Shown in pieces: positions 8,387 to 61,254 of a DNA stretch of 64,000 bases. The notes below the pieces were generated by a model. It worked only from the letters and a program-made list of their open reading frames with translations, had not been told where the DNA came from and did no database searches. This DNA is from an uncultured Candidatus Saccharibacteria bacterium (lineage in GTDB: Bacteria > Patescibacteriota > Minisyncoccia > Phycocordibacterales > UBA9973), in the NCBI GenBank assembly GCA_964412965.1, contig CAYPQU010000003.1, forward strand, positions 2,788-66,787, in the 5' to 3' direction. The translations under genes and the position numbers were made by a program. The first letter of the stretch is position 1. Every line of letters starts with the position of its first letter.

Positions 8387-9658
8387 CTAAGAAATTACTT
8401 CTTTACCAAAATATTTTTGCAAAACAGACGGGATTTTAATACTTCCATCTGCTTGTTGAAAATTCTCTACCAACGAAACAAGTATTCTAGGAGTTGGAAT
8501 GGCTGTACAATTTAAAGAATGGGCATATTTCATCTTGCCTTCTTCGTCTCTGTAACGAATATTCATTCTTCGAGTTTGAAAATCATGGAAATAAGAAGCA
8601 GACGATATTTCTCTGTATTTATTTTCTTTTGGCACCCACAACTCTATATCGTATTTCTTTACTTGCCCCATTCCCAAGTCCGCACCACAATTAGCTACGG
8701 TATGATAAGGGATTCCTAGTGTTTCTATAAATTCTTCAGTGTTGCGGTTAATTTCTTCATGGAATGCTACACTGTCACTGTGAGAAGCCTTGCAAAGTAC
8801 TACTTGTTCCCATTTATAAAATTCGTGTACCCTAATTAATCCCTTCACATCTTTTGAGTGACTTCCTGCTTCTCGGCGATAACAAGGTGAAAATCCTAAA
8901 TATTTTTTAGGTAATTCTTCTGCGTTTAAAATTTCATCTTGGTGCAATCCCATCAATGGCACTTCAGCAGTCCCTGTAAGGAAATCTCCATCTTGAGTTT
9001 TGTACAAATCTTCTTCCCCTTGTGGAATATAACCTGTCCCCATGAAAGTTTCTCGTCGAATTATGACAGGAGGGAGAACTGGGATAAAACCCTTATTAGA
9101 GAAAAATTCCAAAGCATGATTCCAGATAGCCATAGAGAGCTTCACCCCCTCGCCAGTGAGAAAATATCCCCTGAAGCCGTGAACCTTTATTCCTCGGTCA
9201 AAATCTACCATTTTATGAGCCATCATTAGATCGATATGATCTTTTGGTTCGAAATCAAAATTGGTCTTTTCTCCCCAAGTTTTTACTTCTGTGTTATCAG
9301 CATCGGAATCTCCTTCTGGAACAGAAATATCGGGAATGTTGGGAACTTCAAGCATCAATTTTTGCCATTCAATCATAATCTCTCGAAGCTCATCTTCTTT
9401 TTGCTTTAAATCATCTTTAACCAAACGCATTTCTTCGATTAGCTGTTTTCTTTCTACGTCAGTCAAAGTACCCCCCATCGAGACACTAACTTTATTTTGT
9501 TCACCTCTTAATGATTCCACTTGAGACAAAAGCGACAGTCTTTTTTCATCCACCGCTAAAAGCTTTTCAATGTCGACTTCGACATGTTTCTTTTTAGCTC
9601 CTTCTTTAACTATTTCTTTGTTTTCTCGTATAAATTTTATATCTAACATAGTAAGCAT
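8387..9658 (-). CDS. serS: Seryl-tRNA synthetase
   Basis: N-terminal coiled coil and class II core motifs, full length (~423 aa). Confidence 0.95.
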   Translation of the reverse strand: MLTMLDIKFIRENKEIVKEGAKKKHVEVDIEKLLAVDEKRLSLLSQVESLRGEQNKVSVSMGGTLTDVERKQLIEEMRLVKDDLKQKEDELREIMIEWQKLMLEVPNIPDISVPEGDSDADNTEVKTWGEKTNFDFEPKDHIDLMMAHKMVDFDRGIKVHGFRGYFLTGEGVKLSMAIWNHALEFFSNKGFIPVLPPVIIRRETFMGTGYIPQGEEDLYKTQDGDFLTGTAEVPLMGLHQDEILNAEELPKKYLGFSPCYRREAGSHSKDVKGLIRVHEFYKWEQVVLCKASHSDSVAFHEEINRNTEEFIETLGIPYHTVANCGADLGMGQVKKYDIELWVPKENKYREISSASYFHDFQTRRMNIRYRDEEGKMKYAHSLNCTAIPTPRILVSLVENFQQADGSIKIPSVLQKYFGKEVIS

Positions 9659-9789: not shown

Positions 9790-9899
9790 GTCATCAAAAA
9801 CAATCTTCTTTTAGAGACTAGCGAGTGCGGCGGCACGAGCTCGAGGAATTTTTCAGCAGAAAAATATCCGTGCTCTAAAAGAAGATTATTTTTGATGAC
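9790..9899. repeat. MITE-like element: ~26-bp terminal inverted repeats flanking a GC-rich core that is also found twice in the ileS leader
   Basis: Left TIR gtcatcaaaaacaatcttcttttagag and right TIR ctctaaaagaagattatttttgatgac. Core gcgagtgcggcggcacgagctcgaggaatttttcagcagaaaaatatccgtgc matches 43166-43230 and 43316-43385. Confidence 0.55.
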
Positions 9900-10865: not shown

Positions 10866-13085
10866 ATGACTAAGAAGTTACTTATTGTAGAGTCACCTTC
10901 AAAAGCTAAGACGATAGAAAAATACCTAGACGGAGAATACACAGTTCGAGCTTCTGTTGGACACATCAGAGATTTGCCAAAATCAAACAAAAACGCCATT
11001 AATATAGAAAATGGTTTTGTTCCTAATTATGAAATTTCAAAGGGTAAAGAAAAAGTGGTTTACGAACTAAAAACTCTTGCCGAAAAAGCCGACGAGGTGA
11101 TGCTTGCAACAGACCCTGACCGAGAAGGAGAAGCTATTTCTTGGCACCTAAAAGACATTTTAGATACTGATAAAAAAATTAAAGCTCCAATCAAAAGAGT
11201 AGCCTTTCATGAAATTACAAAAGAAGCTATTATAGAAGCTTTACAAAACCCTCGTGATATTGACTTAAATCTAGTTAAAGCACAGGAAGCAAGACGCGTT
11301 CTCGACAGATTAGTTGGATATGATTTGTCTGGGATAATTTGGAAAAAAGTTAGATATGGTTTGTCCGCGGGAAGAGTTCAATCCCCTGCCCTCCGAATCA
11401 TCATGGAAAGAGAAAGGGAAATTAGAGCTTTTATCCCTGAAAAGTATTGGACAATTGAAGGAATTTTTAATCTAAATAAAAATAAAATTAAACTAACCTG
11501 TACAGAGGAACCTCGAGACGAAAAAATCGTAAAAGAAATCTTATCTCTAGGTCAAAAAGAAAAATGGATTATTACTGACATCAAATCCTCTGAACAAAAG
11601 AGACAGCCTAGACCTCCATTTACCACATCCACTTTGCAACAAACCGCAAGCACTAGACTCGGATTCTCTCCTTCTAGAACAATGCAAATTGCACAAAGAT
11701 TGTACGAAGCTGGTCTTATTACCTACATGCGTACCGACAGTACCAATCTAAGCACACAAGCACAAAATCAAATCATTTCGCTCGTTGAAAAAAAATATGG
11801 AAAAGAATATGCCGAAAAGCATTTCTATAAAGCTAAATCTAAAAATGCCCAGGAAGCTCACGAAGCTATCAGACCTACTCACATTGATAACATGTCAGTC
11901 GGAGCTACCGAAGAACAGAAGAAGCTCTATAGACTTATCTGGGAAAGAGCAGTCTCTTCTCAAATGACAGATGCTAAACTTTTAAAATCAAAAATCGTAG
12001 CCAATATAGAACATGGCCAAATACCTGACTTTACAGCTAATGGATCAAAGATTTTATTCCCCGGATGGCTTGCTTGCGACAGTGACGCAAGCGGTGATGA
12101 TATCATACTTCCTGAAGTAAAAAAGGGGCAGGCAATTGACCTTATTGAAATCAGCGAAAATGAAAAATCTACCGAACCACCAAATAGATACACCGAGGCT
12201 GGACTAGTCAAAGAACTAGAATCTAGAGACATAGGAAGACCTTCGACTTACGCGAGTATCATCAAAACACTAGAAGATAGAGGTTATGTAAGAAAAGAAG
12301 GACGCACTCTTTTCCCTACTGATACCGGAGATGTCGTTTCAAGTTTTCTAGAAAATAATTTCTATAACTATATTAGCGACAATTTTACCGCAGACATGGA
12401 AGACAAGTTAGACGATATCTCCAACGGCAAAAGAGATTACGTGAAAACTTTAAAAGATTTTTATGGACCGTTCTTAAGTGACATCAAAGAGAAAGAGAAA
12501 TTAGCAAAAGCTACTAACATAGAAGACGCACCCGAGAATATTAAATGCCCAAAATGTGGCGGTGACATGACTGTGAAGCTTGCCAGAAACGGCAAATTCT
12601 ATTCATGTAAAAATTATCCTGATTGCAGCGGTGCTCTCACCCTAGACGGCAAAGAACTCGAGGGTCCAAAAGAAACCGGAGAAATGTGTCCAACTTGTGG
12701 AGATAAAAAGGGTAAAAACGGTGGAGGAAAACTAGTTGTCAGAGAAGGTAGGTTTGGTTCGTTTATCTCGTGTTCTCGTTACCCTAAATGTAAATTTATT
12801 AAACAAGATGAAGAAGAATTAAAAAAGAAAATGACTGAAATTACCTGCCCTGTTTGCAATAATGGAAAAATGATGGAGAGACGAGGAAGATTCGGAATTT
12901 TTTATTCATGTAGTAATTATCCTGATTGTAAAAATGCAATTAAAGCAAAACCAACTGGTAATATCTGCCCCTTCTGTGACGCCCTGATGATGAATGGCAC
13001 AAAAACTATTCCCGAAAGATGTAGTAATAACAAGTGTCCAAATCATCGACCAGATAAGCTTGAAAAAGAAAAAAGAAGTTCTTAA
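10866..13085 (+). CDS. topA: DNA topoisomerase I with C-terminal zinc-ribbon repeats
   Basis: MTKKLLIVESPSKAKTIEKYL Toprim start and four CxxC...CxxC zinc ribbons at the C-terminus. The ORF opens at 10830, but 10866 is the likelier start. Confidence 0.95.
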   Translation: MTKKLLIVESPSKAKTIEKYLDGEYTVRASVGHIRDLPKSNKNAINIENGFVPNYEISKGKEKVVYELKTLAEKADEVMLATDPDREGEAISWHLKDILDTDKKIKAPIKRVAFHEITKEAIIEALQNPRDIDLNLVKAQEARRVLDRLVGYDLSGIIWKKVRYGLSAGRVQSPALRIIMEREREIRAFIPEKYWTIEGIFNLNKNKIKLTCTEEPRDEKIVKEILSLGQKEKWIITDIKSSEQKRQPRPPFTTSTLQQTASTRLGFSPSRTMQIAQRLYEAGLITYMRTDSTNLSTQAQNQIISLVEKKYGKEYAEKHFYKAKSKNAQEAHEAIRPTHIDNMSVGATEEQKKLYRLIWERAVSSQMTDAKLLKSKIVANIEHGQIPDFTANGSKILFPGWLACDSDASGDDIILPEVKKGQAIDLIEISENEKSTEPPNRYTEAGLVKELESRDIGRPSTYASIIKTLEDRGYVRKEGRTLFPTDTGDVVSSFLENNFYNYISDNFTADMEDKLDDISNGKRDYVKTLKDFYGPFLSDIKEKEKLAKATNIEDAPENIKCPKCGGDMTVKLARNGKFYSCKNYPDCSGALTLDGKELEGPKETGEMCPTCGDKKGKNGGGKLVVREGRFGSFISCSRYPKCKFIKQDEEELKKKMTEITCPVCNNGKMMERRGRFGIFYSCSNYPDCKNAIKAKPTGNICPFCDALMMNGTKTIPERCSNNKCPNHRPDKLEKEKRSS

Positions 13086-13102
13086 ACTTCTTTAAGAACT
13101 TA

Positions 13103-13196: not shown

Positions 13197-13352
13197 CAAA
13201 AACTATTCCCGAAAGATGTAGTAATAACAAGTGTCCAAATCATCGACCAGATAAGCTTAAAAAAGAAAAAAGAAGTTCTTAAACTTCTTTAAGAACTTGA
13301 TAAAAAAAACTCCTAATTTAATACAGAACTTTAGAATAAAATAATAAAGTTT

Positions 13353-23496: not shown

Positions 23497-23578
23497 CCCA
23501 GGTGGCGGAATTGGTATACGCGCTAGTCTTAGGAACTAGTGGAGCAATCCTTGGAGGTTCAAGTCCTCTCCTGGGCAC
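23497..23578 (+). tRNA. tRNA-Leu (anticodon TAG), long variable arm
   Basis: Acceptor gcccagg/cctgggc, anticodon loop ctTAGga, T-loop ggttcaagtcc. Confidence 0.8.
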
Positions 23579-23644
23579 ACGTAATGTGCAAAAAAGAAGC
23601 AATGTTATTGCTTCTTTTTTAAGGAGAGGACTTGAAAGACGGAC

Positions 23645-23732
23645 TCCGACGAAGGCCGGAGGAGTCGGGGTCGCGAGTTTTGCCAGCAGACAAAAACTTG
23701 TGACCAAGTCCTTTTGGTCGAAAACGAGAAGC
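23645..23732. repeat. GC-rich ~88-nt insert (E2) flanked by 76-bp direct duplications of the tRNA-Leu 3' end and terminator (23569-23644 and 23733-23808)
   Basis: The duplicated flank includes ctcctgggcacacg and the hairpin gaagcaatgttattgcttc followed by T-run. The insert shares cggggtcgc...ttgtgacca with E1. Confidence 0.6.
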
Positions 23733-23894
23733 TCCTGGGCACACGAAGTGTTCAAAAATGAAGCAATGTTATTGCTTCTTTTTTAAGGAGAGGACTTGAA
23801 AGACGGATCTTCGATCCTTAACGAAATTAATCGAACGAGAAGCTGAATGATTATATCTTATTGCTTATTCTATCAAAATATAGTATACTTTCCC

Positions 23895-31362: not shown

Positions 31363-32139
31363 TTACCGCACACAACGAACATAAAAATTGTATGCACTCT
31401 TGGAATTGTAGGTTATTACTCCCGTATCAAAGAAAGAACGCCAGGCAGAAGAAGTATCGTCGACATTCTCTGTAGAAGTCCAGTATCTAGATGAGGTAAA
31501 ACCAACAGGAGTGTGTGAAATATTTCCAGATGCTTCATAATAGGCTTTCATAGGAGTTAGAAGCATTCCCACAGAAGGTAATCGTCCACCAGAAATAGTA
31601 CACGCACTCATAGCGTAAGACCAATTCATCGAAACATCACCACTCTCAGATGTAACTCCCAATGATGTCACTCCTTTTTTGTCCCATTCCACCACTCCAT
31701 TTTGATCTACTGACCACGCCTTAAGCATAGTATCATCATAGATAATGGCTGTAGCAGCAAATAAAGAAGCTGCGGACGAGCATTTTACTATTATATTTTG
31801 ATCAATTAGTTGTTGTGCAATTTTGCCCAAACTATTATCAATCCCAGCACAAGTAGTATTATACACGGAAGGATTTGATCCTGAATAACTTCCTAAACTT
31901 ATGAAATTAATTTCAGCCTGATTGTATAGTTGTTTTAATGTTGACTTGATTAAGGCAATCTTGCTCTTTTCTCTTGCAGAGTTTAGTGATGTGATGACAA
32001 CAGAGGAGAGTATTCCGATGATTGCAATTACTACTAGTAGTTCAATGAGGGTGAACCCCGACACCCAGTTTTCTCTATCTTTAAAACTAAGTGCGGAGGT
32101 GAAATCTTTATTGTTTGATTTTAAGAAAAGTTTTTTCAC
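31363..32139 (-). CDS. Type IV pilin-like protein (prepilin N-terminus) with a C-terminal DUF1566-like domain ending YVRCVR
   Basis: GFTLIELLVVIAIIGIL prepilin methylation motif and helix. The C-terminus (YWTST...AW...YVRCVR) is characteristic of DUF1566. Confidence 0.7.
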   Translation of the reverse strand: MKKLFLKSNNKDFTSALSFKDRENWVSGFTLIELLVVIAIIGILSSVVITSLNSAREKSKIALIKSTLKQLYNQAEINFISLGSYSGSNPSVYNTTCAGIDNSLGKIAQQLIDQNIIVKCSSAASLFAATAIIYDDTMLKAWSVDQNGVVEWDKKGVTSLGVTSESGDVSMNWSYAMSACTISGGRLPSVGMLLTPMKAYYEASGNISHTPVGFTSSRYWTSTENVDDTSSAWRSFFDTGVITYNSKSAYNFYVRCVR

Positions 32140-39563: not shown

Positions 39564-42500
39564 TTATTTTACCACCTTAATTACAAAAGTTAAATCTGCA
39601 ATTTTTACTTCTGTCCCTTCGTTGTCTTTATATTCTATCGCCTTAGCAGATACTAATTTTTGAATATTTTCCTTAAACTTTTCTATCAAACCCTGCCCTT
39701 CTTCGTTAGTTTTAATCAAGAGCGTAATTAGATCGTTTGGATTTAAATCGTTTTTCTTTCTTATGTCTTGAATAGCTCTAACCAACTCTCTGTAATTTCC
39801 TTCTTTCTTTAAATCTTCGGTTATGTTTATATCCAAGATAACTTCGAGCTCTTGCCCTTCTTCAAATTTAACATTTTTAATGTTCAACTCATCTTTTAGA
39901 ATAGAGACATACTCTTCTTTTAAGTTATATTTTTTAACAGTTATTTCTTGCAGAGGTTGTCTTACGGGGATTGAGGCCTTTTGTCTATTTTGTAATCCCA
40001 AAGTTACGATCTCTCGTAGCTCCTTCATGTCTTCAATAACCTTATCATCGTAAGCGAATCCTTCTGGCCACTCTCCGAGGTGGACGCTCATGGAATCATT
40101 TTCTAATTTTAATTTTTGCCAAATATCTTCAGCGGAAAAAGGAGCAAATGGCGCCATTAATTTTGCCATTGTTTTAAATACAAAATAAATAGTTTGTTTG
40201 GCTTCTATGTCTCCCTCTTTTATTCTGTCTCTTGAGCGACGTAAATACCAAGTAGATAAATCGTCAATAAAGCCTCTCATCGCTCTCGCAGGTTCTAGTA
40301 ATTTATAATTTTCTAAGTTTTCTGTTGATACTTTTATCAATTCTCCCAGTCTAGATAATATCCAAATATCTAAGACGTTTTTACTGTTTGGTTTATCACT
40401 TGTTACTATTTTTGTATCTCTATACAACTCATAAAAAGCAAAAACATTGTAAAACAAATTGAAGAACTTGTTATTCAATTCTGCAACTGTTTTTTCATCA
40501 AAGTTTTTTGGTTCCCCAGGTTGGTTTATTGAATACATCCAGAGTCTTAAAGTATCAACTCCATATTTATCTGACATTTCCCAAGGATCAACTCCGTTGC
40601 CGAGAGATTTAGACATCTTCTTTCCATTGGCGTCGAGAACCAACCCGAGACAAATCACATTTTTAAATGCTTTTCCTTTACCCATGATTGTTCCTACTGC
40701 ATGTAACGTATAGAACCACCCTCTTGTTTGGTCTATCCCCTCACTGATGAAGTCTGCAGGATAAGCAATATCTGTAGTACTAAAAGGATAATGGCTTTGA
40801 GCAAAAGGCATTGACCCGGAATCCAGCCAGACGTCCATAACTTCTTTTGCTCTTTCTAATTTTCCACCACAATCGCAAACAACATCCACTTCATCAATAT
40901 ATGGTCTGTGCAAGTCTAGTTCATAATTTTCATCATGAGGAATTGGTTTAAAATCAAGCTCTCTAATTTCTGAATTAACAAGACAAGAGAAATCTTTTAG
41001 CATGGAGAGCGTTTGCCTTGCTCCATATCCGTTTATTCCCGCAAGCATCAACCAAGCTGGTCCCCCATGTGTTACGATTAAAATATTTTTACCTTGATAT
41101 TTATTTTCTAGGCCGTACAAGAAGTCCATTGATCTTTTTCTAAGCTCATTCCAAGTCTCACTTCCTTCTTCTGTTTTATAGAAGTTCTCTTCTGTGTTTG
41201 GATAATCATTGTGATAATCTTGCCAAGTTTTACCTTCATATTTAGAGACCTTGTATTCAGTTAGACTTTCATCAATTAAAATATTTTTTTCGTCATATCC
41301 CAATATTTTCGCTACTTCTATGGCAGTTTCTCTTGCTCTTGTTACAGGTGAAGAAATAATTAAATCTATTTTTTCATTTTTTAATTTTTCTGCATTATTT
41401 CTTGTCTCATTGACACCCTTTTCCGTTAGATGACTAACTCGATATTCATCAGAAGTATTTATTTTTCCGTCTAAATTATTTTCAGATTCACCATGACGCA
41501 TTACAAAATATTTATTACCAGAAGTTTTTGCTTTGGATTTTATATCTTCAACTCCACCTAGGACTTCTATTTTGCCACAAGTATCACATTTCCAGACAGG
41601 AAGCGGAGTCCCCCAATATCTTTCTCGAGAGATTGCCCAATCTTTAATATCTTTTAGCCACTCTCCAAAACGCCCTTCTTTAATATATGAAGGCTCCCAA
41701 TTTATATTTTCATTTTCTTTAACCATCTTGTCTTTAAGCGCAGACATTCTGATATACCAAGAATCTCGCGCATAATATATAAGAGCTGTTTTACATCTCC
41801 AGCAATGAGGGTAAGTGTGTTCGTACTTTTCTTTCTTATGCAAAAGTCCTTTTCCTGCCAAATCTTTTATTATATCGACAGCCACATCTTCGTCTCGAAC
41901 AAATCTATCTTTTAGAAAATCAGTTCCTTCCAGGAATTTTCCATCAAGCCCAACAAGATGACATTTAGGTAATCCTACTTTATTGCCAAGCTCAAAGTCG
42001 TCTTGACCATACATGGGAGCAATATGCACCACCCCTGTTCCGTCTTCTGTAGTCACAAAATCCGCTCCATATATTTTATAAGCATTTTCCATTTTTTCAG
42101 CTTCTTCTTTCGATGCTATTGCTTTTGTATACGGATATAGTGGTTCATATGAAAGACCAATTAAATCTTTCCCTTTTAATTCTTCTACAATATTATATTC
42201 TCCTTCCAAAACAGAAAGTCGTGATTTCGCAAGAATTAAAAATTCTCCATTTTGTTCTACGCGAACATAATCAATATCTTCTCCAACTGCCAAGGCGACA
42301 TTTGAAGGAAGAGTCCAAGGAGTTGTCGTCCAAACTAATATGTGAATTTCTTCGCCTGTATGCTTATGCGAATGGTCTGGCTCCGGCTCTTGTCCCCCTC
42401 GTCCGAGGACCTGAGCAGAAGCATCAGGCGAAGAAACCTGGAAACTCGAAGCTCCTGTTAATTTAAATTTCACGTACACGGTTATATCTTTCACATCCTG

Positions 42501-43091
42501 ATATCCTTGAGCCAGTTCATGCGAAGAGAGCCCAGTTCCACATCTAGGACACCAGGGTACTATTTTATAGTCTTTATAAAGTAAATTTTGCTTATGTGCT
42601 TCTTTGATGACATTCCATACTGATTCGATGTAAGTATTATGATACGTAACATACGGATTTTCCTGATCAACCCAAAAGCCTATCCTGTCTGTGAATTTAT
42701 GCCATAAATCTGTATAGTTCCAAACATTGTGCTTGCATTCTTTATTAAATTTATCTATTCCATATTCTTCAATATCTTTTTTTGATTGCAAGTTTAACTT
42801 TTTCTCTACTTCAATTTCAACAGGAAGACCATGAGTATCCCAACCACCCTTTCTCGTGACGTGATAACCATTCATTGTCTTATAACGCAAAACCGCATCC
42901 TTAAAAGCTCTCGCCGCTAGATGGTGAATTCCAGGCTTGCCATTCGCCGTCGGAGGGCCTTCGAAGAAAACATACTCTCCCTTCGGAGAATTCTTCTCTA
43001 AACTTTTTTCAAAAATTTTATTGTCCTGCCAAAACTCTAAAACTTTTTCTTCTCTCAGTGCATTATTTGATTTTGTTTTTTCTTCGTTCAT
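39564..43091 (-). CDS. ileS: Isoleucyl-tRNA synthetase carrying an internal ~180-aa histidine-phosphatase-like insertion
   Basis: HIGH region PPTANGKPGIHHLA, WTTTPWTLPSN, KMSKSLGNG. The insert carries FVMRHGESENN...SSPVTRARETA...THGG between split Cys pairs CDTCG and CDCGG. Confidence 0.95.
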   Translation of the reverse strand: MNEEKTKSNNALREEKVLEFWQDNKIFEKSLEKNSPKGEYVFFEGPPTANGKPGIHHLAARAFKDAVLRYKTMNGYHVTRKGGWDTHGLPVEIEVEKKLNLQSKKDIEEYGIDKFNKECKHNVWNYTDLWHKFTDRIGFWVDQENPYVTYHNTYIESVWNVIKEAHKQNLLYKDYKIVPWCPRCGTGLSSHELAQGYQDVKDITVYVKFKLTGASSFQVSSPDASAQVLGRGGQEPEPDHSHKHTGEEIHILVWTTTPWTLPSNVALAVGEDIDYVRVEQNGEFLILAKSRLSVLEGEYNIVEELKGKDLIGLSYEPLYPYTKAIASKEEAEKMENAYKIYGADFVTTEDGTGVVHIAPMYGQDDFELGNKVGLPKCHLVGLDGKFLEGTDFLKDRFVRDEDVAVDIIKDLAGKGLLHKKEKYEHTYPHCWRCKTALIYYARDSWYIRMSALKDKMVKENENINWEPSYIKEGRFGEWLKDIKDWAISRERYWGTPLPVWKCDTCGKIEVLGGVEDIKSKAKTSGNKYFVMRHGESENNLDGKINTSDEYRVSHLTEKGVNETRNNAEKLKNEKIDLIISSPVTRARETAIEVAKILGYDEKNILIDESLTEYKVSKYEGKTWQDYHNDYPNTEENFYKTEEGSETWNELRKRSMDFLYGLENKYQGKNILIVTHGGPAWLMLAGINGYGARQTLSMLKDFSCLVNSEIRELDFKPIPHDENYELDLHRPYIDEVDVVCDCGGKLERAKEVMDVWLDSGSMPFAQSHYPFSTTDIAYPADFISEGIDQTRGWFYTLHAVGTIMGKGKAFKNVICLGLVLDANGKKMSKSLGNGVDPWEMSDKYGVDTLRLWMYSINQPGEPKNFDEKTVAELNNKFFNLFYNVFAFYELYRDTKIVTSDKPNSKNVLDIWILSRLGELIKVSTENLENYKLLEPARAMRGFIDDLSTWYLRRSRDRIKEGDIEAKQTIYFVFKTMAKLMAPFAPFSAEDIWQKLKLENDSMSVHLGEWPEGFAYDDKVIEDMKELREIVTLGLQNRQKASIPVRQPLQEITVKKYNLKEEYVSILKDELNIKNVKFEEGQELEVILDINITEDLKKEGNYRELVRAIQDIRKKNDLNPNDLITLLIKTNEEGQGLIEKFKENIQKLVSAKAIEYKDNEGTEVKIADLTFVIKVVK

Positions 43092-43399
43092 ATGTTTTCT
43101 ATTTAACTAATAATTTTAATAATTATCCAAGAAAATAAAAATAAGTCTTTGAGAAATACCTTGCGCAGAGCGACGGCTCGAGCAGAGAAATTTTTCAACA
43201 GAAAAATATTCGTGCATTTCGAGAAGAGCTTATTTTTGCTTTCTCTTAAGAAAAAAACTCGTTATTTAATAATTATCCCAAGAAAGCAAGAATAAGTCTT
43301 TGAGAAATGACTAGGGAGCGCGACGGCGCGAGCTCGAGGAATTTTTCAGCAGAAAAATATCCGTGCATTTCGAGAAGAGCTTATTTTTGCTTTCCCTTA

Positions 43400-43600
43400 A
43401 CAAAAAACTCGTCCTTGTATAACAATCGACTGATTGCTACATAAGGACGAGTTTCTCTCCTCGTGGTACCACCTTAATTCCCCTAAAAGGGCTTATTTTA
43501 CAGCTTTTACGGGCTTACCCGCTAAGTTCTAATCTCCTTTTGTGGATTTCTTCTTAGTGCTCCGAGGTGATGTCCTCTTCAACGCTTCTATATATATATT
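43400..43600 (-). promoter_or_regulatory. T-box riboswitch leader (Ile specifier) upstream of ileS
   Basis: In the sense strand: a stem I region containing ggacATCacc (ATC = Ile codon), the T-box sequence aattaaggtggtaccacgagg, and the terminator ctcgtcctt...aaggacgag followed by tttttt. Confidence 0.7.
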
Positions 43601-43745: not shown

Positions 43746-44534
43746 CTACCTAACACAGCGAACATAGAACCCGCTAGTCTGACTGTGGTTGTACAAGTTA
43801 CCATTGTTCATGCTCTGGTAGTAAGCGAGCGTAGTAGGCGAAGACGGAACAGGGATAGAAGACCAGTAAACGCTCGCTACGAAACCAAGAGGAGTGTAAG
43901 GTGTAGCGGTTGCTCCAGCACCTGCATAAGATGCCCAATATAGGGTTCTCAATTGTTCAATAGAAGGAAGGCGTCCGCCGTTTGTAGTACAAGCAGTTTT
44001 TGCTGTAGACCAGTTCATAGTATTGCTACCCAAAACATCATCACCTGGGAGTGAAGCTCCGGCTGATGTTACACTCCTTGTATCCCACTTAACTACTCCG
44101 TTTTCATCTACTGACCATGCTTTGAGTTCACCAGTGTCATAGATGAGGGCTGTGGCTCCGAAACGAAAGTTGTTGTCACCTAAATAAACACCACTGGTAC
44201 CTAGATAGCTAAAGCATTTAACTATAATTCCTTGGTCAATAAGAGGTTGAGCTATTTTAGCTAGATTACCTCCTGGGCCTGTACAGGTTAAATCTGAATA
44301 TGATGTATTAGAGTTTGCAAAACTACCATATTCTGCTTGATTGATGGCAGCTTGGTTGTATAGTTGTTTTAAGGAGGATTTAATAGAAGCAATCTTGCTC
44401 TTTTCTCTTGCAGAGTTTAGTGAAGTGATGACAACTGATGAGAGTATTCCGATGATTGCAATTACTACCAATAGTTCTATCAATGTAAACCCTTTGGTAA
44501 ATTTTGATGATTTAAAAATAGATTTTTTACTCAT
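43746..44534 (-). CDS. Type IV pilin-like protein with a C-terminal DUF1566-like domain (paralog of 31363-32139)
   Basis: Identical prepilin N-terminus (GFTLIELLVVIAIIGILSSVVITSLNSAREKSKIA). The C-terminus ends GFYVRCVR, and its 3' region is GC-rich. Confidence 0.7.
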   Translation of the reverse strand: MSKKSIFKSSKFTKGFTLIELLVVIAIIGILSSVVITSLNSAREKSKIASIKSSLKQLYNQAAINQAEYGSFANSNTSYSDLTCTGPGGNLAKIAQPLIDQGIIVKCFSYLGTSGVYLGDNNFRFGATALIYDTGELKAWSVDENGVVKWDTRSVTSAGASLPGDDVLGSNTMNWSTAKTACTTNGGRLPSIEQLRTLYWASYAGAGATATPYTPLGFVASVYWSSIPVPSSPTTLAYYQSMNNGNLYNHSQTSGFYVRCVR

Positions 44535-44810
44535 GTTTTTATTATATCATCATATTGTTTAACGACAACCCTTAATTATCAAATCCCCCCTTTTATACAA
44601 ACCAAACCTATATAATTAATTCCATCCATCACCTTACGCGATCGCTTGCAGTGATGTAAAATATCAAGATCTCAATTTCATAAGTTAAATCCATGTAAAA
44701 AACAACAGCATTTCTATCCATTACTTTACGCGATAGCGTAAAGTAATGGATAGAAATATTATTATTCTGCTATATCCCAACTTCCCTGGGTCTGGCCCAA
44801 GGGAACTGGA

Positions 44811-44936
44811 CTAGGTGAACAGACACAAGGTAACAAATCTGAGTGAATAGGCCTATGTGAACGGACCTAGGTGAACAGACTTAGGTGAACAAACTTAAGA
44901 GAACAAACTCAGGTGGGCAGACCTAAGGGAACGAAC
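44811..44936. repeat. Nine tandem degenerate 14-bp repeats (consensus cTAGGTGAACAGAC)
   Basis: Read directly: ctaggtgaacagac, ctatgtgaacggac, ctaggtgaacagac, ttaggtgaacaaac, ttaagagaacaaac, tcaggtgggcagac, ctaagggaacgaac and others. Confidence 0.7.
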
Positions 44937-55893: not shown

Positions 55894-56084
55894 TGTCTAT
55901 CTAAGAGTATCACAAATCCTTCTCGGCTTCAATCCTGTTAGAAAAAAGTCGCCCCGAGGTGACTGAAGCACTCAATTGCTATTGAGGGCGTTTTCTAACG
56001 GGATCAATAAATTCATCTAAATATCTTTAAGGTCAAAAATTCCAAATTACAAAACCTAAAAAATCACAAAACTCAATCTACAAG

Positions 56085-57089
56085 CTACCTTGTAAAACTG
56101 CGGGAGGAACGAAAGCCCAAAGGGTCGTACTGAAACGAAAAACCACAGACATTGACAACGCGCTTGCCACTGCTGGGATCCAAAGTCGAAAAGACAAGAC
56201 GGGAACCGCTTTTGGTAGAGAGCCATATCCAGCCATCTTTATCTAAGTGTTTGCCTGTTTCTTCAAAGTATTTCTTGGATAGTATGAGATATTCTTCAAG
56301 GGATAGAGTGGTATCTAGAGGGACATCTTGACCTTTGATGTTTAGTGTTTGAGCTAGTTCTGGGTGGTCTTTCAAGTTTTGAGTGTTGTGAGTGAGGATG
56401 AGACGGATTTTGTCTTGATTTTGACTTTGGGCTTTCTTGAAGCTTCCACCTTCTTTAAAGTTATCACTTTCCCAATACTTTGCGTCCTTCATCTTCTTAG
56501 CTAGGTCTGGTAAGTCGGTGGTAGGAGGGATTAAGATGATTTCATTGAATCCGTGAGCTTCTATCTCTTTCTCGATTTCATCTAGATTATTGTTCCATAT
56601 CTCTTTGATTTGTTCTTCAAAGTCATCTGCAACTTCTAGATTGTGTTTCTTGTAGAAAGATATGTATTCGTTTAGCTTTTGTTCAATGTTTAGAGTGATT
56701 TGTTCGGTTTTTTCTACCTTACCGTCCTTGTTGATGAAGGTGTAGATGGAGGAGATTTTTTCGGTGTGAGAAGGTAGAGGTTCACCACTATCTAGTCTTT
56801 CTTTCATCTTCTCTACTCTATCCATCATACTGTTTAGCTTTTCTTGCATAGTTACCTTTCTTTCTTCTCCTTTTCCTTCTTTTTCATCTTCTTGATCGTT
56901 AAATAATCCTTGTGATATGGATTCTTTATATTCTTCTATGGCTTCTTGTATTGGGAGTTTAAGTGATTGTATTTTACCTTCTAATATACTCCTCAATTCT
57001 TCTTGAGATTTCTCTGGTTTTGGAACACTTTTTTCTTGGGTTTGAGTGTTCTCTTTTTTGCTTTTGAATAGGTTGGTGAGAGATTCCAT
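56085..57089 (-). CDS. Hypervariable-C-terminus paralog 1 (~330-aa family; candidate DGR-type variable protein with a CLec/FGE-like C-terminal end)
   Basis: N-terminal 40 aa nearly identical to the paralogs at 57112 and 60240. The C-terminus ...WLSTKSGSRLVFS...LGFRSSRSFTR is GC-rich and divergent. Confidence 0.7.
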   Translation of the reverse strand: MESLTNLFKSKKENTQTQEKSVPKPEKSQEELRSILEGKIQSLKLPIQEAIEEYKESISQGLFNDQEDEKEGKGEERKVTMQEKLNSMMDRVEKMKERLDSGEPLPSHTEKISSIYTFINKDGKVEKTEQITLNIEQKLNEYISFYKKHNLEVADDFEEQIKEIWNNNLDEIEKEIEAHGFNEIILIPPTTDLPDLAKKMKDAKYWESDNFKEGGSFKKAQSQNQDKIRLILTHNTQNLKDHPELAQTLNIKGQDVPLDTTLSLEEYLILSKKYFEETGKHLDKDGWIWLSTKSGSRLVFSTLDPSSGKRVVNVCGFSFQYDPLGFRSSRSFTR

Positions 57090-57111
57090 GATAAAAGGTT
57101 ATAAGTACAAG

Positions 57112-58104
57112 CTACTTCATATAACTACAGGAGGAACGGAACCCCAAACCGCCACCCTGAGCCGAAAAGCCACGGGCACCGACAAGGCGCTTGCGGTCGC
57201 CGAGATCCCAATACGAATAGACGAGACGAGCACCAGATTTGGTTGCAAGCCAAGTATAGTTATCTTCATCTAGGTGGTGACCTGTTTCTTCAAAATATTT
57301 CTTGGAAAGGATAAGGTATTCTTCGAGAGAAAGAGTCTTGTCTAGGGGAACGTCTTGTCCTTTGGTATTTAGAGTTTTAGCTAGTTCGGGGTGATCTTTC
57401 AGATTTTGGACTTTGTGAGTGAGAATTATGCGAGTCTTGTCTTGATTTTGACTTTGAGCTTTCTTAAAACTTCCACCCTGTTTGAAATTACCACTTTCCC
57501 AGTATTTTGTTTCTTTCATTTTCTCTGCTAAATCTGATAGATCTGTGGTAGGGGGAATTAGCAGGATTTCATTGAATCCGTGTCCCTCTATCTGTTTCAG
57601 TATGTCGTCTGTGTTTTCTTCCCAAATATCTCTGATATCTTCTTCAAAATTATCGGGTATTTCTACACCATGCGAATCGTAAAAAGAAATGTATTCGTTT
57701 AACTTTTGTTCGATATTTAATGTGATTTGTTCGACTTTCCTTGTGTCGGGGAAAGTGTAGGAGGATTCGATTGAATCGGTAAGTGAGGGTAGTATTTCAT
57801 TGCTGTCTAGCTTGGCTTTCATCTTCTCTACTCTATCTAGCATACTATTGATCTTTTCTTGCATAACTGTCTTTCTTTCTTCACCTTTTCCTTCTTCTTC
57901 ATCTTCTTGATCGTTAAATAATCCTTGTGATATGGATTCTTTGTATTCTTCTATGGCTTCTTGTATTGGGAGTTTAAATGATTGTATTTTACCTTCTAAT
58001 ATACTCCTCAATTCTTCTTGAGATTTCTCTGGTTTTGGAACACTTTTTTCTTGGGTTTGAGTGTTCTCTTTTTTGCTTTTGAATAGGTTGGTGAGGGATT
58101 CCAT
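57112..58104 (-). CDS. Hypervariable-C-terminus paralog 2
   Basis: Same family. Its 3' ~170 nt are identical to the 3' end of the AAA-fusion gene (61255-61420). Confidence 0.7.
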   Translation of the reverse strand: MESLTNLFKSKKENTQTQEKSVPKPEKSQEELRSILEGKIQSFKLPIQEAIEEYKESISQGLFNDQEDEEEGKGEERKTVMQEKINSMLDRVEKMKAKLDSNEILPSLTDSIESSYTFPDTRKVEQITLNIEQKLNEYISFYDSHGVEIPDNFEEDIRDIWEENTDDILKQIEGHGFNEILLIPPTTDLSDLAEKMKETKYWESGNFKQGGSFKKAQSQNQDKTRIILTHKVQNLKDHPELAKTLNTKGQDVPLDKTLSLEEYLILSKKYFEETGHHLDEDNYTWLATKSGARLVYSYWDLGDRKRLVGARGFSAQGGGLGFRSSCSYMK

Positions 58105-58124
58105 GGGGAAATTATAGCATAATA

Positions 58125-60209
58125 TTATATATCTTTTAAGTGTTCTTTTAATAGTTCTGACAACACTAATGGTAAATTCTTTACATTTTCAACAACCAGA
58201 GCGTTTGGAGAATAAGTCGAAATGACAGCACCCCCTGAGTTGGTAATACCTAATCCGACGACAACAATCCCTTTATTTCGAAGAACTTTCAAGATAGACT
58301 GAACCCGAGAGGGATTGTCACTTTCTCCATCGGTCATAACTATAACAATTTTCTTCAACATTCCTTCTTCTATTTTCTTTTCTACTTCTGGGTCTAGTTT
58401 GTCTTCAATACTTTCAAGACAAAAAAAGTCCGTAGTGGAGCCATTGATATCATAAAGTTTATTTAAGATATTTATCCTTTCTGCCTCACCGAGATCTTTT
58501 GACATAATTTTAATTGGTTTTTTGTCTTCGTTGTTGCCTGCAAAAGAATATATCTCTGATTTTACTTCGAGTGGTTTATCCATATTCATCTTCTCCTCTT
58601 CTGTCATTTCCGCAAATTCTTTCAAGGTTTCCATCATAAGAACTGCGGACTTCCTTTGCTCTTCAGCATTTTCTCCCCCCATAGATCCCGAGCGATCACA
58701 GACAAGAGTTATCTCAACTTCACCAAATCTATCTCCTTTTTTTTCTTTTAACTCTATGTCTTCCCAAACTCGAGGTTCCAAATTACCAGACTTAACTTCC
58801 GCGACAAGCTGACTAGGATCTACCAAATAATCCCCTTCCTCTGTTGGATATTTGGGGACAAAAGACTTTTGGGTTCTTTTAGAAATTATCCGAAAGAAGA
58901 GATTTTTCATTTCTTCCAGCACTTCTACGCCGGTATTCTCATTCACCATACTGCGAACCTGCTCTGCAACCTTTCGATAATTTTGCAAACTTTCTTTAGT
59001 AACTCCTATCTTTTCAGCATAATCTTCATCTGCCTTGTCTTTGTTTTCTTTACAGTTTTCTTTGTTTTTCTTCCATTCTTCAAATGCTTTCTCTATATCT
59101 TCTATCGAAATAGCTTCAGGGAATTTCTTCTCGACCTCACTATACTCTTTTTCAAAAATTTTATTTGGATCTTTTTCTTCTTCTCTATCACCACCTTTTC
59201 CTTTCTTTTCTTTTTGTTTTTTGTCTTTACCGTTTTTTGATTCCCCTTCTCCTTCTTCTTCTACACTTTCATTTCCATCATTTTTATCTTCTCTGTCTTG
59301 TTCTTCTGATTTTTGATCATCTTTCTCTCCTCCGTTGTTTTCTTCTTTTGAATCTTGAGAATCTTTTTTATTTCCCCCTTCTTTTTCTTCTAGTTCACCT
59401 TCTCCGCTCTGCCCTTTACCCTCAGAATTTTCTTGACCGCTATCTTCTTCTTTTTTATTATTCCTATCTTCTATATCTTTCTCCAAAAGACTTTGCACTC
59501 TTGGCCAAATATATTTGTCTTGCAATTCCCATCTCAATGACATTGGAGTTTCAGGATTTGTCATGATATCCATCAGACCCTTCACTTTTTCTATTTCTAC
59601 AATCTTCTGTCTTACATCATTTCCCACTATGCACTTTTCATTTTTTACTCTTGCTTCCCGTAGAAGAGCCTCACAAATTTGAATATGTCTTGGTTGTGAA
59701 GTAAAATCTATTTCTTTAAACAAGTTTTCTCTATACATCTTGTCTTCTATTTCTTTCATGCCTTCATTCGTTCTCGATATCACAGATCTATTTTCACGAA
59801 TATCGGCAATGCAATTATCCATTAACCCAAAAGCTTTAGATTTTTTATTTTTTTCTAAATAATTCTTAAAAGATTTTTCCCCATTTTTTTCTTTTAATAC
59901 TTGGATTTTCTCTGAGAAATGTTCCACCTCGTGCAAGGTTGCAAAAATCGTTTTCTCATCAGAAAACCCTGCTTCTTTATAAAACATTGGATTCACATAA
60001 ATAGTATTGTTTTCAAGGTTAAAAGCAAAAGTATTCAAACCGGCAGGAGAAGGTTCTATCTTTATTTTTCCTTTTGAGTAGTGTTCAAAAAAATCTCTGT
60101 TTTTCTCCACAAAGTCAAAAGCTTCGTTATTTACACCTTCACCCTCAAAAGATCTAGGTTTCGCAACCTTTTCTTCTTTTTTTATTTCTTTTAATCTAAA
60201 TTTTTCCAT
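58125..60209 (-). CDS. von Willebrand factor A (vWA) domain protein with an acidic low-complexity linker
   Basis: C-terminal vWA with MIDAS motif DRSGSMGG and a later TDG motif (VMTDGESDN). The middle is E/K/D-rich. Confidence 0.75.
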   Translation of the reverse strand: MEKFRLKEIKKEEKVAKPRSFEGEGVNNEAFDFVEKNRDFFEHYSKGKIKIEPSPAGLNTFAFNLENNTIYVNPMFYKEAGFSDEKTIFATLHEVEHFSEKIQVLKEKNGEKSFKNYLEKNKKSKAFGLMDNCIADIRENRSVISRTNEGMKEIEDKMYRENLFKEIDFTSQPRHIQICEALLREARVKNEKCIVGNDVRQKIVEIEKVKGLMDIMTNPETPMSLRWELQDKYIWPRVQSLLEKDIEDRNNKKEEDSGQENSEGKGQSGEGELEEKEGGNKKDSQDSKEENNGGEKDDQKSEEQDREDKNDGNESVEEEGEGESKNGKDKKQKEKKGKGGDREEEKDPNKIFEKEYSEVEKKFPEAISIEDIEKAFEEWKKNKENCKENKDKADEDYAEKIGVTKESLQNYRKVAEQVRSMVNENTGVEVLEEMKNLFFRIISKRTQKSFVPKYPTEEGDYLVDPSQLVAEVKSGNLEPRVWEDIELKEKKGDRFGEVEITLVCDRSGSMGGENAEEQRKSAVLMMETLKEFAEMTEEEKMNMDKPLEVKSEIYSFAGNNEDKKPIKIMSKDLGEAERINILNKLYDINGSTTDFFCLESIEDKLDPEVEKKIEEGMLKKIVIVMTDGESDNPSRVQSILKVLRNKGIVVVGLGITNSGGAVISTYSPNALVVENVKNLPLVLSELLKEHLKDI

Positions 60210-60239
60210 GTAATCTGTTGTATCAAAAAAAGCTACAAG

Positions 60240-61232
60240 CTACTTCATATAACTGCGGGAGGAACGAAAGCCCAAACGGCCGCTCCGATACGAAAAAGCA
60301 TCGGCATCGACACAGCGCCGGTCACGGCCGGGATCCCAATCCGAACAGACAAGACGGGAACCGCTTTCTGTCGAGAGCCAAGTCGCACCGTATTCATCTA
60401 AGTGCTTGCCTGTTTCTTCAAAGTATTTCTTGCATAGTATGAGGTATTCTTCAAGAGACAGAGTGATGTCTAAGGGGACATCTTCTCCTTTGATGTTTAA
60501 GGTTTGAGCTATTTCGGGATGGTCTTTCAAGTTTTGAGTGTTGTGAGTGAGGATGAGACGTACTTTGTCTTGATTTTGACTTTGAGCTTTTTCGAAACTT
60601 CCACCTTCTTTGAAATTATCACCTTCCCAATACTTTGCCTCCTTCATCTTCTCTGCTAAATCTGATAGATCTGTGGTTGGTGGAATTAGCAGGATTTCAT
60701 TGAATCCATGTTCTGTCATCTGCTTTTTAATGTCATTGATATTTGCTTCCCAGATATCTTTGATGTCTTCTTCGAAATTATCGGGTATTTCTACACCATG
60801 TGAATCATAGAAAGAAATGTATTCGTTTAACTTTTGTTCGATATTTAATGTGATTTGTTCGACTTTCCTTGTGTCGGGGAAAGTGTAGGAGGATTCGATT
60901 GATTCGGTAAGTGAGGGTAGTATTTCATTGCTGTCTAGCTTGGTTTTCATTTTTTCTACTTTGTCTAACATGCTATTTAACTTCTTTTGCATAGACATCT
61001 TTCTTTCTTCTCCTTTTCCTTCTTCTTCGTCTTCTTGATCATCAAACTTACCATCTTCTAATGATGTTTGATATTCTTTGATTAATTCTTCGATTGGAGT
61101 TTTAAGTGATTGTATTTTACCTTCTAATATACCCCTCAGTTCTTCTTGAGATTTCTCTGGTTTTGGAACACTTTTTTCTTGAGTGTTCGTGTTCTCTTTT
61201 TTGCTTTTGAATAGGTTGGTGAGAGATTCCAT
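60240..61232 (-). CDS. Hypervariable-C-terminus paralog 3
   Basis: Same family. C-terminus ...WLSTESGSRLVCSDWDPGRDRRCVDADAFSYRSGRLGFRSSRSYMK. Confidence 0.7.
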   Translation of the reverse strand: MESLTNLFKSKKENTNTQEKSVPKPEKSQEELRGILEGKIQSLKTPIEELIKEYQTSLEDGKFDDQEDEEEGKGEERKMSMQKKLNSMLDKVEKMKTKLDSNEILPSLTESIESSYTFPDTRKVEQITLNIEQKLNEYISFYDSHGVEIPDNFEEDIKDIWEANINDIKKQMTEHGFNEILLIPPTTDLSDLAEKMKEAKYWEGDNFKEGGSFEKAQSQNQDKVRLILTHNTQNLKDHPEIAQTLNIKGEDVPLDITLSLEEYLILCKKYFEETGKHLDEYGATWLSTESGSRLVCSDWDPGRDRRCVDADAFSYRSGRLGFRSSRSYMK

Positions 61233-61254
61233 GATAAAAGGTTATAAGTACAAG

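Follow-up and report, generated by a model that had tools for sequence, protein, structure and literature searches.

The hairpin sequences lying upstream of serS and ileS in the window, the whole 64,000-nucleotide stretch of DNA analysed here, belong to a palindromic repeat family of Patescibacteria that apparently has not been described previously, and they have nothing specific to do with aminoacyl-tRNA synthetases (aaRS). The repeat units are non-coding, measure about 100-190 nt and fold into a long hairpin enclosing a conserved three-way junction. A first-pass annotation of the window had proposed a shared element upstream of the two synthetase genes, either a small mobile element with a preference for aaRS leaders or a leader RNA motif. 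The shared element is real and comprises three hairpin copies of ~110 nt together with a weak fourth copy (Table 1). At least 140 copies are present in other Patescibacteria contigs, on both strands and in random contexts, the distribution that had been named as the mark of a generic MITE; it fits a generic mobile repeat and refutes an aaRS-specific role. The reading considered the most probable, with moderate confidence, is that of a selfish palindromic repeat, similar to Rickettsia palindromic elements (RPEs) and MITEs, that is recognised through its structured core.

The three copies all lie on the + strand, in agreement with the common orientation initially reported. The 29-mer GGAATTTTTCAGCAGAAAAATATCCGTGC is found exactly at 9845-9873 and 43338-43366 and with 3 mismatches at 43187-43215, where 0 occurrences are expected in 100 shuffles of the window. 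Copy 1 displays inverted arms of 27 nt each, complementary at 26 of the 27 positions with a single C·A, which enclose the three-way junction; the terminal inverted repeats, the central AU hairpin and the GC-rich parts are all as had been claimed. The core string quoted for the element is exact only at 43320-43366, whereas the serS copy, for which it had been given, reads gcgagtgcggcggcacgagctcgagg... and differs in the small GC hairpin. The latter is GUGC/GCAC in copy 1 and CGCG/CGCG in the ileS copy, a compensatory change, and the core of copy B equals that of copy 1 except in this hairpin (P2). The arms of copy B are of the AAUAAGUCUUUGAGAAAUG / CAUUUCGAGAAGAGCUUAUU subfamily, and copies A and B form a tandem duplication with a period of 151 bp. 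Copies 1, A and B fold far better than shuffled sequence on either strand. The fold of copy 1 has an energy of -52.1 kcal/mol on the + strand (z -8.9) and of -54.7 on the - strand, with z about -9 to -10 over the strands, and the + strand folds of copies B and A reach -47.7 kcal/mol (z -5.8) and -34.7 kcal/mol (z -3.1), respectively. The fourth copy keeps the three-way-junction topology of the others, with a CAGCAGA loop and GUGAC after P3. It is situated between the two members of a 76-bp direct repeat in which the last ~10 nt of tRNA-Leu(TAG) and a terminator hairpin are duplicated; this pair at the tRNA-Leu 3' end looks like a tandem duplication or an integration scar. Further direct and tandem repeats of the window are listed in Table 1.

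Table 1 Positions of the repeat copies, the neighbouring genes and signals, and other repeats in the window
Feature	Position	Strand	Description
serS ORF	8387-9658	-	
serS promoter-like site	9687-9659	-	TTGTAA-17-TATAAT; best match, 10/12; abuts serS start
Copy 1	9790-9899	+	divergent dprA–serS spacer; located by sequence; match to covariance model (CM) R1 at 9804-9885, 101.1 bits
Copy 1, 5' arm	9790-9816	+	
Copy 1, junction strand	9817-9819	+	ACU
Copy 1, P2	9820-9841	+	AGC-GA-GUGC[GGCG]GCAC-GA-GCU
Copy 1, junction strand	9842-9844	+	CGA
Copy 1, P3	9845-9869	+	GGAAUUUUUC[AGCA]GAAAAAU(A)UCC
Copy 1, strand after P3	9870-9872	+	GUG
Copy 1, 3' arm	9873-9899	+	
dprA-like ORF	starts 9926	+	
Direct-repeat pair	13000-13101 and 13197-13298		102 nt, 99%
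76-bp direct repeat	23568-23643 and 23732-23807		95% identity
Fourth copy	23633-23715	+	weak and diverged; CM match 24.4 bits, E about 9e-4
Direct-repeat pair	31906-32058 and 44340-44492		153 nt, 85%
ileS ORF	39564-43091	-	ATG at 43091
Copy A	~43130-43245	+	adjoins ileS start codon; more diverged than copy B; CM match 43146-43227, 75.6 bits
Copy B	~43282-43394	+	ileS leader region, adjoins T-box terminator; CM match 43297-43378, 91.4 bits
ileS T-box leader including terminator	43400-43591	-	separate from the repeat element
ileS terminator hairpin	43400-43453	-	
RF00230 match	43440-43591	-	64.5 bits, below the gathering score of 93; local E 1.2e-13
Tandem 14-nt units	44794-44919		~9 copies, GGTGAACAGACNTA-like; upstream of or overlapping small ORFs
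Four paralogous ~1 kb blocks	56075-61900		72-90% identity; spacing about 1015-1027 and 3128 nt; probably a tandem array of gene copies

Each unit has a conserved three-way junction from which two hairpins emerge and which is closed by the stem P1, to which an outer stem P0 is often added. The sequence of P1 is copy-specific yet complementary, often with 20-36 bp of perfect pairing and, together with the outer stem, ~60 paired positions. All four pair types are found at nearly every P1 position, and inner arms are shared only within subfamilies. The small GC hairpin P2 varies in the length of its tip, is flanked on both sides by a conserved GA (tandem G·A) and carries insertions at loci L017, L019, L043 and L035. 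P3 is an A/U hairpin with an ANCA loop and a bulged A, followed by GUG. All three helices covary strongly. The MAFFT alignment of 71 sequences has 89.4% of paired cells against 71.9% when shuffled and a covariation of 0.451 against 0.143; slid-partner controls reach at most 0.17, none of 500 shuffles attains the observed score, and double changes are present in 19 of 30 pairs. Similarly, the alignment of 124 CM hits, which leans to the model, gives 92.4% against 68.3% for paired cells and 0.549 against 0.141 for covariation, with slid-partner controls at most 0.105, 0/500 shuffles and double changes in 29 of the 30 pairs. Double changes affect 9 of the 10 pairs of P3 in the CM alignment. The conservation of this hairpin is partly by design in the first set, as the search pattern demands an intact core, and the CM variants relieve this only in part. 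Variants in which the P3 stem is swapped wholesale (GCAAUCCGCC-AGCA-GGCGGAU(A)UGU, GCAAAAUUUC-AGCA-GAAAUUU(A)UGC and ..AAACGC-ACCA-GCGUUU..) keep the ANCA loop, the bulged A and the following GUG. Structure-preserving covariation, which had been proposed as a check on the element, is thus very strong in all helices, and the element is accordingly a structured palindromic repeat rather than a simple MITE bounded by terminal inverted repeats; apart from that simple architecture, the suggestion of a MITE-like mobile element is broadly right. Known ribozyme cores (hammerhead-like, twister and similar) were compared by eye and rejected, the junction strands ACU / CGA / GUG not fitting them.

The subfamily that bears P0 displays an asymmetric internal loop between P0 and P1, at a fixed distance of ~18 bp from the core, formed by GUYGA on the 5' side and GAGAAA on the 3' side. 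This loop is orientation-specific, being present in at least 11 copies from different genomes (loci L003, L007, L020, L027, L038, L059, L067, L081, L098, L099 and L102), compared with one in a reverse-orientation control. It resembles a K-turn by inspection, but a canonical K-turn was rejected because the non-bulged strand has four extra nucleotides (GAAA).

The two strands of the hairpin are not equivalent. When the arm mismatches are read on the display strand, which is the + strand of the window, 240 are of the G·U type and 165 of the A·C type. The G·U type is in excess in 63 copies and the A·C type in 21. Of 122 copies, 94 fold better on the display strand, the mean difference being 4.7 kcal/mol. 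The bias has no obvious dependence on the orientation of the host gene, the numbers in this comparison being small. In the window the display strand is antisense to both serS and ileS, so that G·U bias and folding energy point away from the synthetase-sense strand, to which the structure had originally been assigned.

The family was collected by an exact-pattern scan with TTTTTCNNCAGAAAAATNTNCGTGC over one genome per GTDB species, in which at least 120 loci, in MAGs of the Parcubacteria/Paceibacteria type, match the core pattern. Several genomes have 3-5 matches, with up to 5 among the matches listed. Among these, every match that names a lineage is CPR (Nomura-, Yonath-, Taylor-, Zambryski-, Wildermuth- and Kaiserbacteria, Paceibacterota, Minisyncoccia and Parcubacteria); many other matching records are labelled 'uncultured Candidatus Saccharibacteria', a label that may be generic, and the remainder 'bacterium' or 'uncultured bacterium'. 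CM R1, built from 71 aligned copies, recovers 124 copies over 99 of the 8-kb loci plus the window, of which 23 fail the strict pattern, are more diverged and lie on either strand. Three copies, on both strands, lie within 3 kb of L022. The type of arm plus core seen in the ileS copies (AAAAUAGUCUUUGAGAAAUG / CAUUUCGAGAAGAGCUAUUUU) reappears in other genomes at unrelated loci, beside dus, rplS, mnmA, dnaJ and dnaK. A host-protein search by the encoded peptide returned only 4 tiny ORFs, which are uninformative as to the hosts. The element matches no Rfam 15 family, the only matches of the window at gathering score being four tRNAs, and the sub-threshold matches over the element (E<=10) are miRNA-hairpin noise. 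No description of the repeat family was found in a literature search that included the literal core sequence. A phage origin was rejected, with 0 matches to the element in 2.9 M viral contigs.

The presence of the element at a given site varies between related genomes. Across 80 serS loci of relatives with 62-91% SerS identity and retained divergent dprA–serS synteny, 75 have no copy upstream of serS and 5 carry copies, in either orientation. The spacer is devoid of the element in the closest relatives, L121 (91%), L122 (90%) and L123 and L124 (both 86%); one copy is present in the spacer of L127, and two copies in opposite orientations are present in L137/L151, L145 and L149. A different palindromic insert, with 18-nt inverted arms (AGAGGTTGAAATATACTC) and an unrelated GC-rich centre, occupies the spacer of L125 and L126 about 300-400 nt upstream of serS, and more than one family of hairpin repeats seems to use the spacer as a landing pad. 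Flank comparison for a target-site duplication gives a longest shared word of 3.72 against 3.35 in shuffled pairs, with no clear signal and no consistent repeat, the boundaries of the element being fuzzy. Taken as a whole, the distribution leads us to infer transposition of the element.

The location assigned to the copies in aaRS leaders applies to ileS and probably not to serS. The serS promoter-like site of Table 1 is present at the equivalent place in the serS relatives L121, L122, L128 and L135, and copy 1 lies >100 nt upstream of its -35. As this conserved site abuts the ATG and the element is upstream of it, copy 1 is probably outside the serS leader and transcript, judging from the consensus match and the conservation of the site. 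For the same reason, namely that the motif abuts the start codon and is conserved in relatives, the serS mRNA is probably leaderless or near-leaderless. The site ends one base before the annotated ATG, and the conserved N-terminus of SerS (MLDIKF) begins at a second ATG (9649). Copies A and B are placed between the terminator of a T-box and the ATG of ileS. It is this T-box, upstream of both copies, that is the real ileS regulator. Its ultrashort Stem I, GCGUUGAAGAGG-ACAUCA-CCUCGGAGC, is a ~14-nt hairpin (GAGG-ACAUCA-CCUC) whose apical loop presents the Ile codon AUC; a K-turn strand of the GA type (GCGUUGA...GGAGC) comes before it, and the T-box sequence is AAUUAAGGUGGUACCACG. The K-turn strand GCGUUGA resembles the GUYGA loop strand of the repeat family, and the T-box likewise has a GA-type internal loop. 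In contrast, the specifier, T-box sequence and antiterminator of a T-box leader (RF00230) have no equivalent in the repeat element, and the Rfam T-box match is confined to the segment given in Table 1, the element having no match even at E<=10.

Copies of the family are found in every arrangement relative to neighbouring genes. Gene starts abutting a copy are opposite to it in 41 cases and co-oriented in 27, and gene ends in 51 and 37 cases, respectively. The 68 start-adjacent genes map to 94 Pfam families, the largest being transketolase with three members, and include only one IleS, which does not support the presumed preference for aaRS leaders. No transposase was seen among the genes adjoining copies. 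Approximately 35 of the 124 copies overlap long ORFs, and 18-20 of these are genuinely inserted in frame in mid-gene, flanked on either side by Pfam domains; with copies next to all sorts of genes and inside ORFs, the proposed leader RNA motif is likewise unsupported. The genic hosts include LigA (within the zinc-finger loop), RecG, PepN (M1 aminopeptidase), ArgS, Dus (twice), PGM (phosphoglucomutase), ComEC and a class-V aminotransferase, as well as TsaD and PheT, each in four genomes, the former in the same orientation at one shared site before the FPRPM motif and the latter in the opposite orientation. Residues 204-241 of the TsaD of L076 have no counterpart in a solved TsaD (8iey), where they correspond to chain residues 188-193. 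Two reading frames dominate, giving RGIFQQKNIRA in the same orientation and HGYFSAEKF, ...HGYFSAEKFLVL... in the opposite one. As genic copies run in either orientation without ever closing the reading frame, it is inferred that the genic element is translated through and not spliced, and an intron or spliced-out reading was rejected on the same grounds. Outward growth of the palindrome restricted to intergenic DNA is unsupported, arm length medians being 26 for genic and 28 for intergenic copies (p=0.92).

The orthologous genic copies of TsaD, PheT and LigA reveal strong conservation of the core. The host proteins share 51-67% identity and, where residues are identical, third codon positions agree at 0.40-0.60, a saturated level. 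Identity of the 58-nt core is 0.90-0.97 whether the copy runs with or against the host gene, in a comparison biased through the search pattern toward lineages with an intact core. The arms of the orthologous TsaD and PheT copies have diverged yet remain complementary (compensatory). Neutral decay could not leave such core identity, which requires selection, re-insertion or gene conversion from other copies.

Compared with known repeat systems, the element shares properties with several and is a member of none of the families tested. What defines a MITE is a pair of conserved terminal inverted repeats that match an IS, together with target-site duplications. The classical examples (Correia/CREE, ERIC, RUP and QMITE of Coxiella) are likewise short, non-autonomous, multi-copy and hairpin-forming, and are mostly intergenic with occasional in-frame ORF fusions and presence/absence polymorphism between relatives. 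The element is short, non-coding, multi-copy and dispersed, with insertion polymorphism between related genomes, but its termini are copy-specific and not conserved among copies, and it has no known parent IS. REPs, which are extragenic, measure 20-40 nt and form imperfect palindromes whose 5' tetranucleotide is conserved; REPINs have conserved arms and a variable tip and are mobilised by RAYT (Y1/HUH) transposases. The element resembles the REP/BIME, REPIN–RAYT and IS200/IS605 systems in that a folded hairpin would be recognised rather than double-stranded DNA ends and in strand asymmetry, and it shares the long hairpins of REPINs. In contrast to REPINs, it combines variable arms with a conserved tip, the opposite arrangement, and has many intragenic copies. 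For RPEs (Ogata et al. 2000, summarised in PMC10969869), the description is of palindromes of about 150 bp that often sit in-frame in unrelated genes. The likeness extends to palindromic non-coding repeats of about 100-150 bp with many dispersed copies in a reduced genome, to a large fraction of copies in-frame in unrelated housekeeping genes, adding a peptide in a preferred frame, and to a hairpin kept by compensatory changes, with no known mobilising enzyme in either family. The two families differ in host phylum, and no sequence relation is expected. Moreover, the Patescibacteria family conserves the apical three-way junction with variation in stem and termini, and is conserved over a far deeper divergence, as seen in the host protein identities given above. 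By these properties, the element works like an RPE or a MITE, with the Rickettsia palindromic element as its closest functional analogue.

According to the preferred reading, the element would spread, or would have spread, as selfish DNA, and the structured core, rather than the termini, would be recognised by a trans-acting mobilisation or maintenance activity. Recognition would probably take place on one strand, folded as single-stranded DNA or RNA, and the arms may be kept paired through compensatory change or hairpin-templated correction. Copy 1 would be a passenger that landed upstream of the serS promoter, in the dprA–serS spacer. At ileS, one copy would have landed between the T-box terminator and the ileS start and then been duplicated, the reverse complement of copies A and B being a putative passenger hairpin in the read-through ileS mRNA. 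Two observations stand against a selfish repeat, namely that no transposase or other partner gene is found among the neighbours and that, unlike in classical MITEs, conservation is lowest at the termini and highest at the centre. The core conservation in orthologous genic copies is unlike that of a decaying selfish insert and fits a host-useful site equally well. It may be, in a tentative formulation that is possible rather than probable, that the element is defined by its structure: a three-way-junction hairpin read on one strand by a CPR enzyme or host factor and held under nucleotide-level purifying selection in every copy, even in essential genes and in either orientation, which would be either mobile via its folded core and not its ends or domesticated as a Patescibacteria-specific genome-wide site. 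Somewhat doubtful, in turn, is a structural module useful to the host at the DNA or RNA level, whose junction would be a putative binding or processing site and whose copies would be selected after the family first spread as a repeat; a nucleoid or replication protein acting on the extruded hairpin, an RNase or an RNA-binding protein are candidate factors of the same unlikely standing. Such a module would account for a core that remains 90-97% identical in the TsaD, PheT and LigA inserts, in both orientations, despite saturated synonymous sites. The combination of covarying helices with conserved loops and junctions, as in functional RNAs, and the recurrence of the GUYGA/GAGAAA loop ~18 bp from the core (at least 11 copies, one in reverse orientation) point the same way, as do the lack of a transposase among neighbours and of viral-contig matches. 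It is opposed by the absence of the serS-spacer copy in the closest relatives and by copy positions that are generally not conserved, with both strands occupied within 3 kb at L022. There is no consistent relation to gene starts, gene ends or gene class, and selfish DNA typically duplicates in tandem and invades ORFs.

The strand asymmetry bears on a further alternative, in which the copies would be scattered genes of independently transcribed small RNAs or would derive from a retro-mobile, SINE-like RNA, the display-strand RNA being the active one. The excess of G·U over A·C and the lower folding energy on one strand, independent of host-gene orientation, agree with this, and tandem G·A, bulged A and ANCA tetraloop are RNA-like motifs. 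However, G·T wobble and tandem G·A are tolerated in folded single-stranded DNA too, and the bias is no proof of an RNA stage; furthermore, no conserved promoter or terminator accompanies the copies, many of which lie inside ORFs and are read through in frame, and no association with a reverse transcriptase was seen among them. This explanation is improbable. A cis-regulatory leader RNA specific to aaRS, sensing or regulating serS and ileS, has next to no probability. It is suggested by three copies that precede two synthetase genes and share their orientation relative to them, by another copy upstream of an IleS gene at L011 and by the presence of PheT and ArgS among the invaded ORFs. Its rejection, as a leader or riboswitch, is decided by distribution, promoter position and strand: only one of the 68 start-adjacent genes is an aaRS, serS relatives overwhelmingly have no upstream copy and those present are in either orientation, and copies invade unrelated ORFs; copy 1 is upstream of the conserved serS promoter-like site; the structurally favoured strand is antisense to serS and ileS; and ileS already has a T-box with an Ile codon.

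The selfish palindromic repeat favoured here is of interest for the biology of its hosts. Patescibacteria have tiny genomes with little non-coding DNA, and despite this they harbour tens of copies of a structured repeat, which is kept in essential proteins (LigA, TsaD, RecG, PheT and others) across deep divergence. In the annotation of CPR genomes the element yields spurious ORFs, odd protein insertions and false 'leader motifs', and the tempting but wrong inference of a new aaRS regulatory RNA is removed. If confirmed, the family would be a second, independent case of selfish DNA inside protein-coding genes after Rickettsia, with evidence for selection on the folded core much stronger than in the Rickettsia case. 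The finding is thereby relevant to protein evolution by insertion and to the search for the machinery that would recognise the junction.
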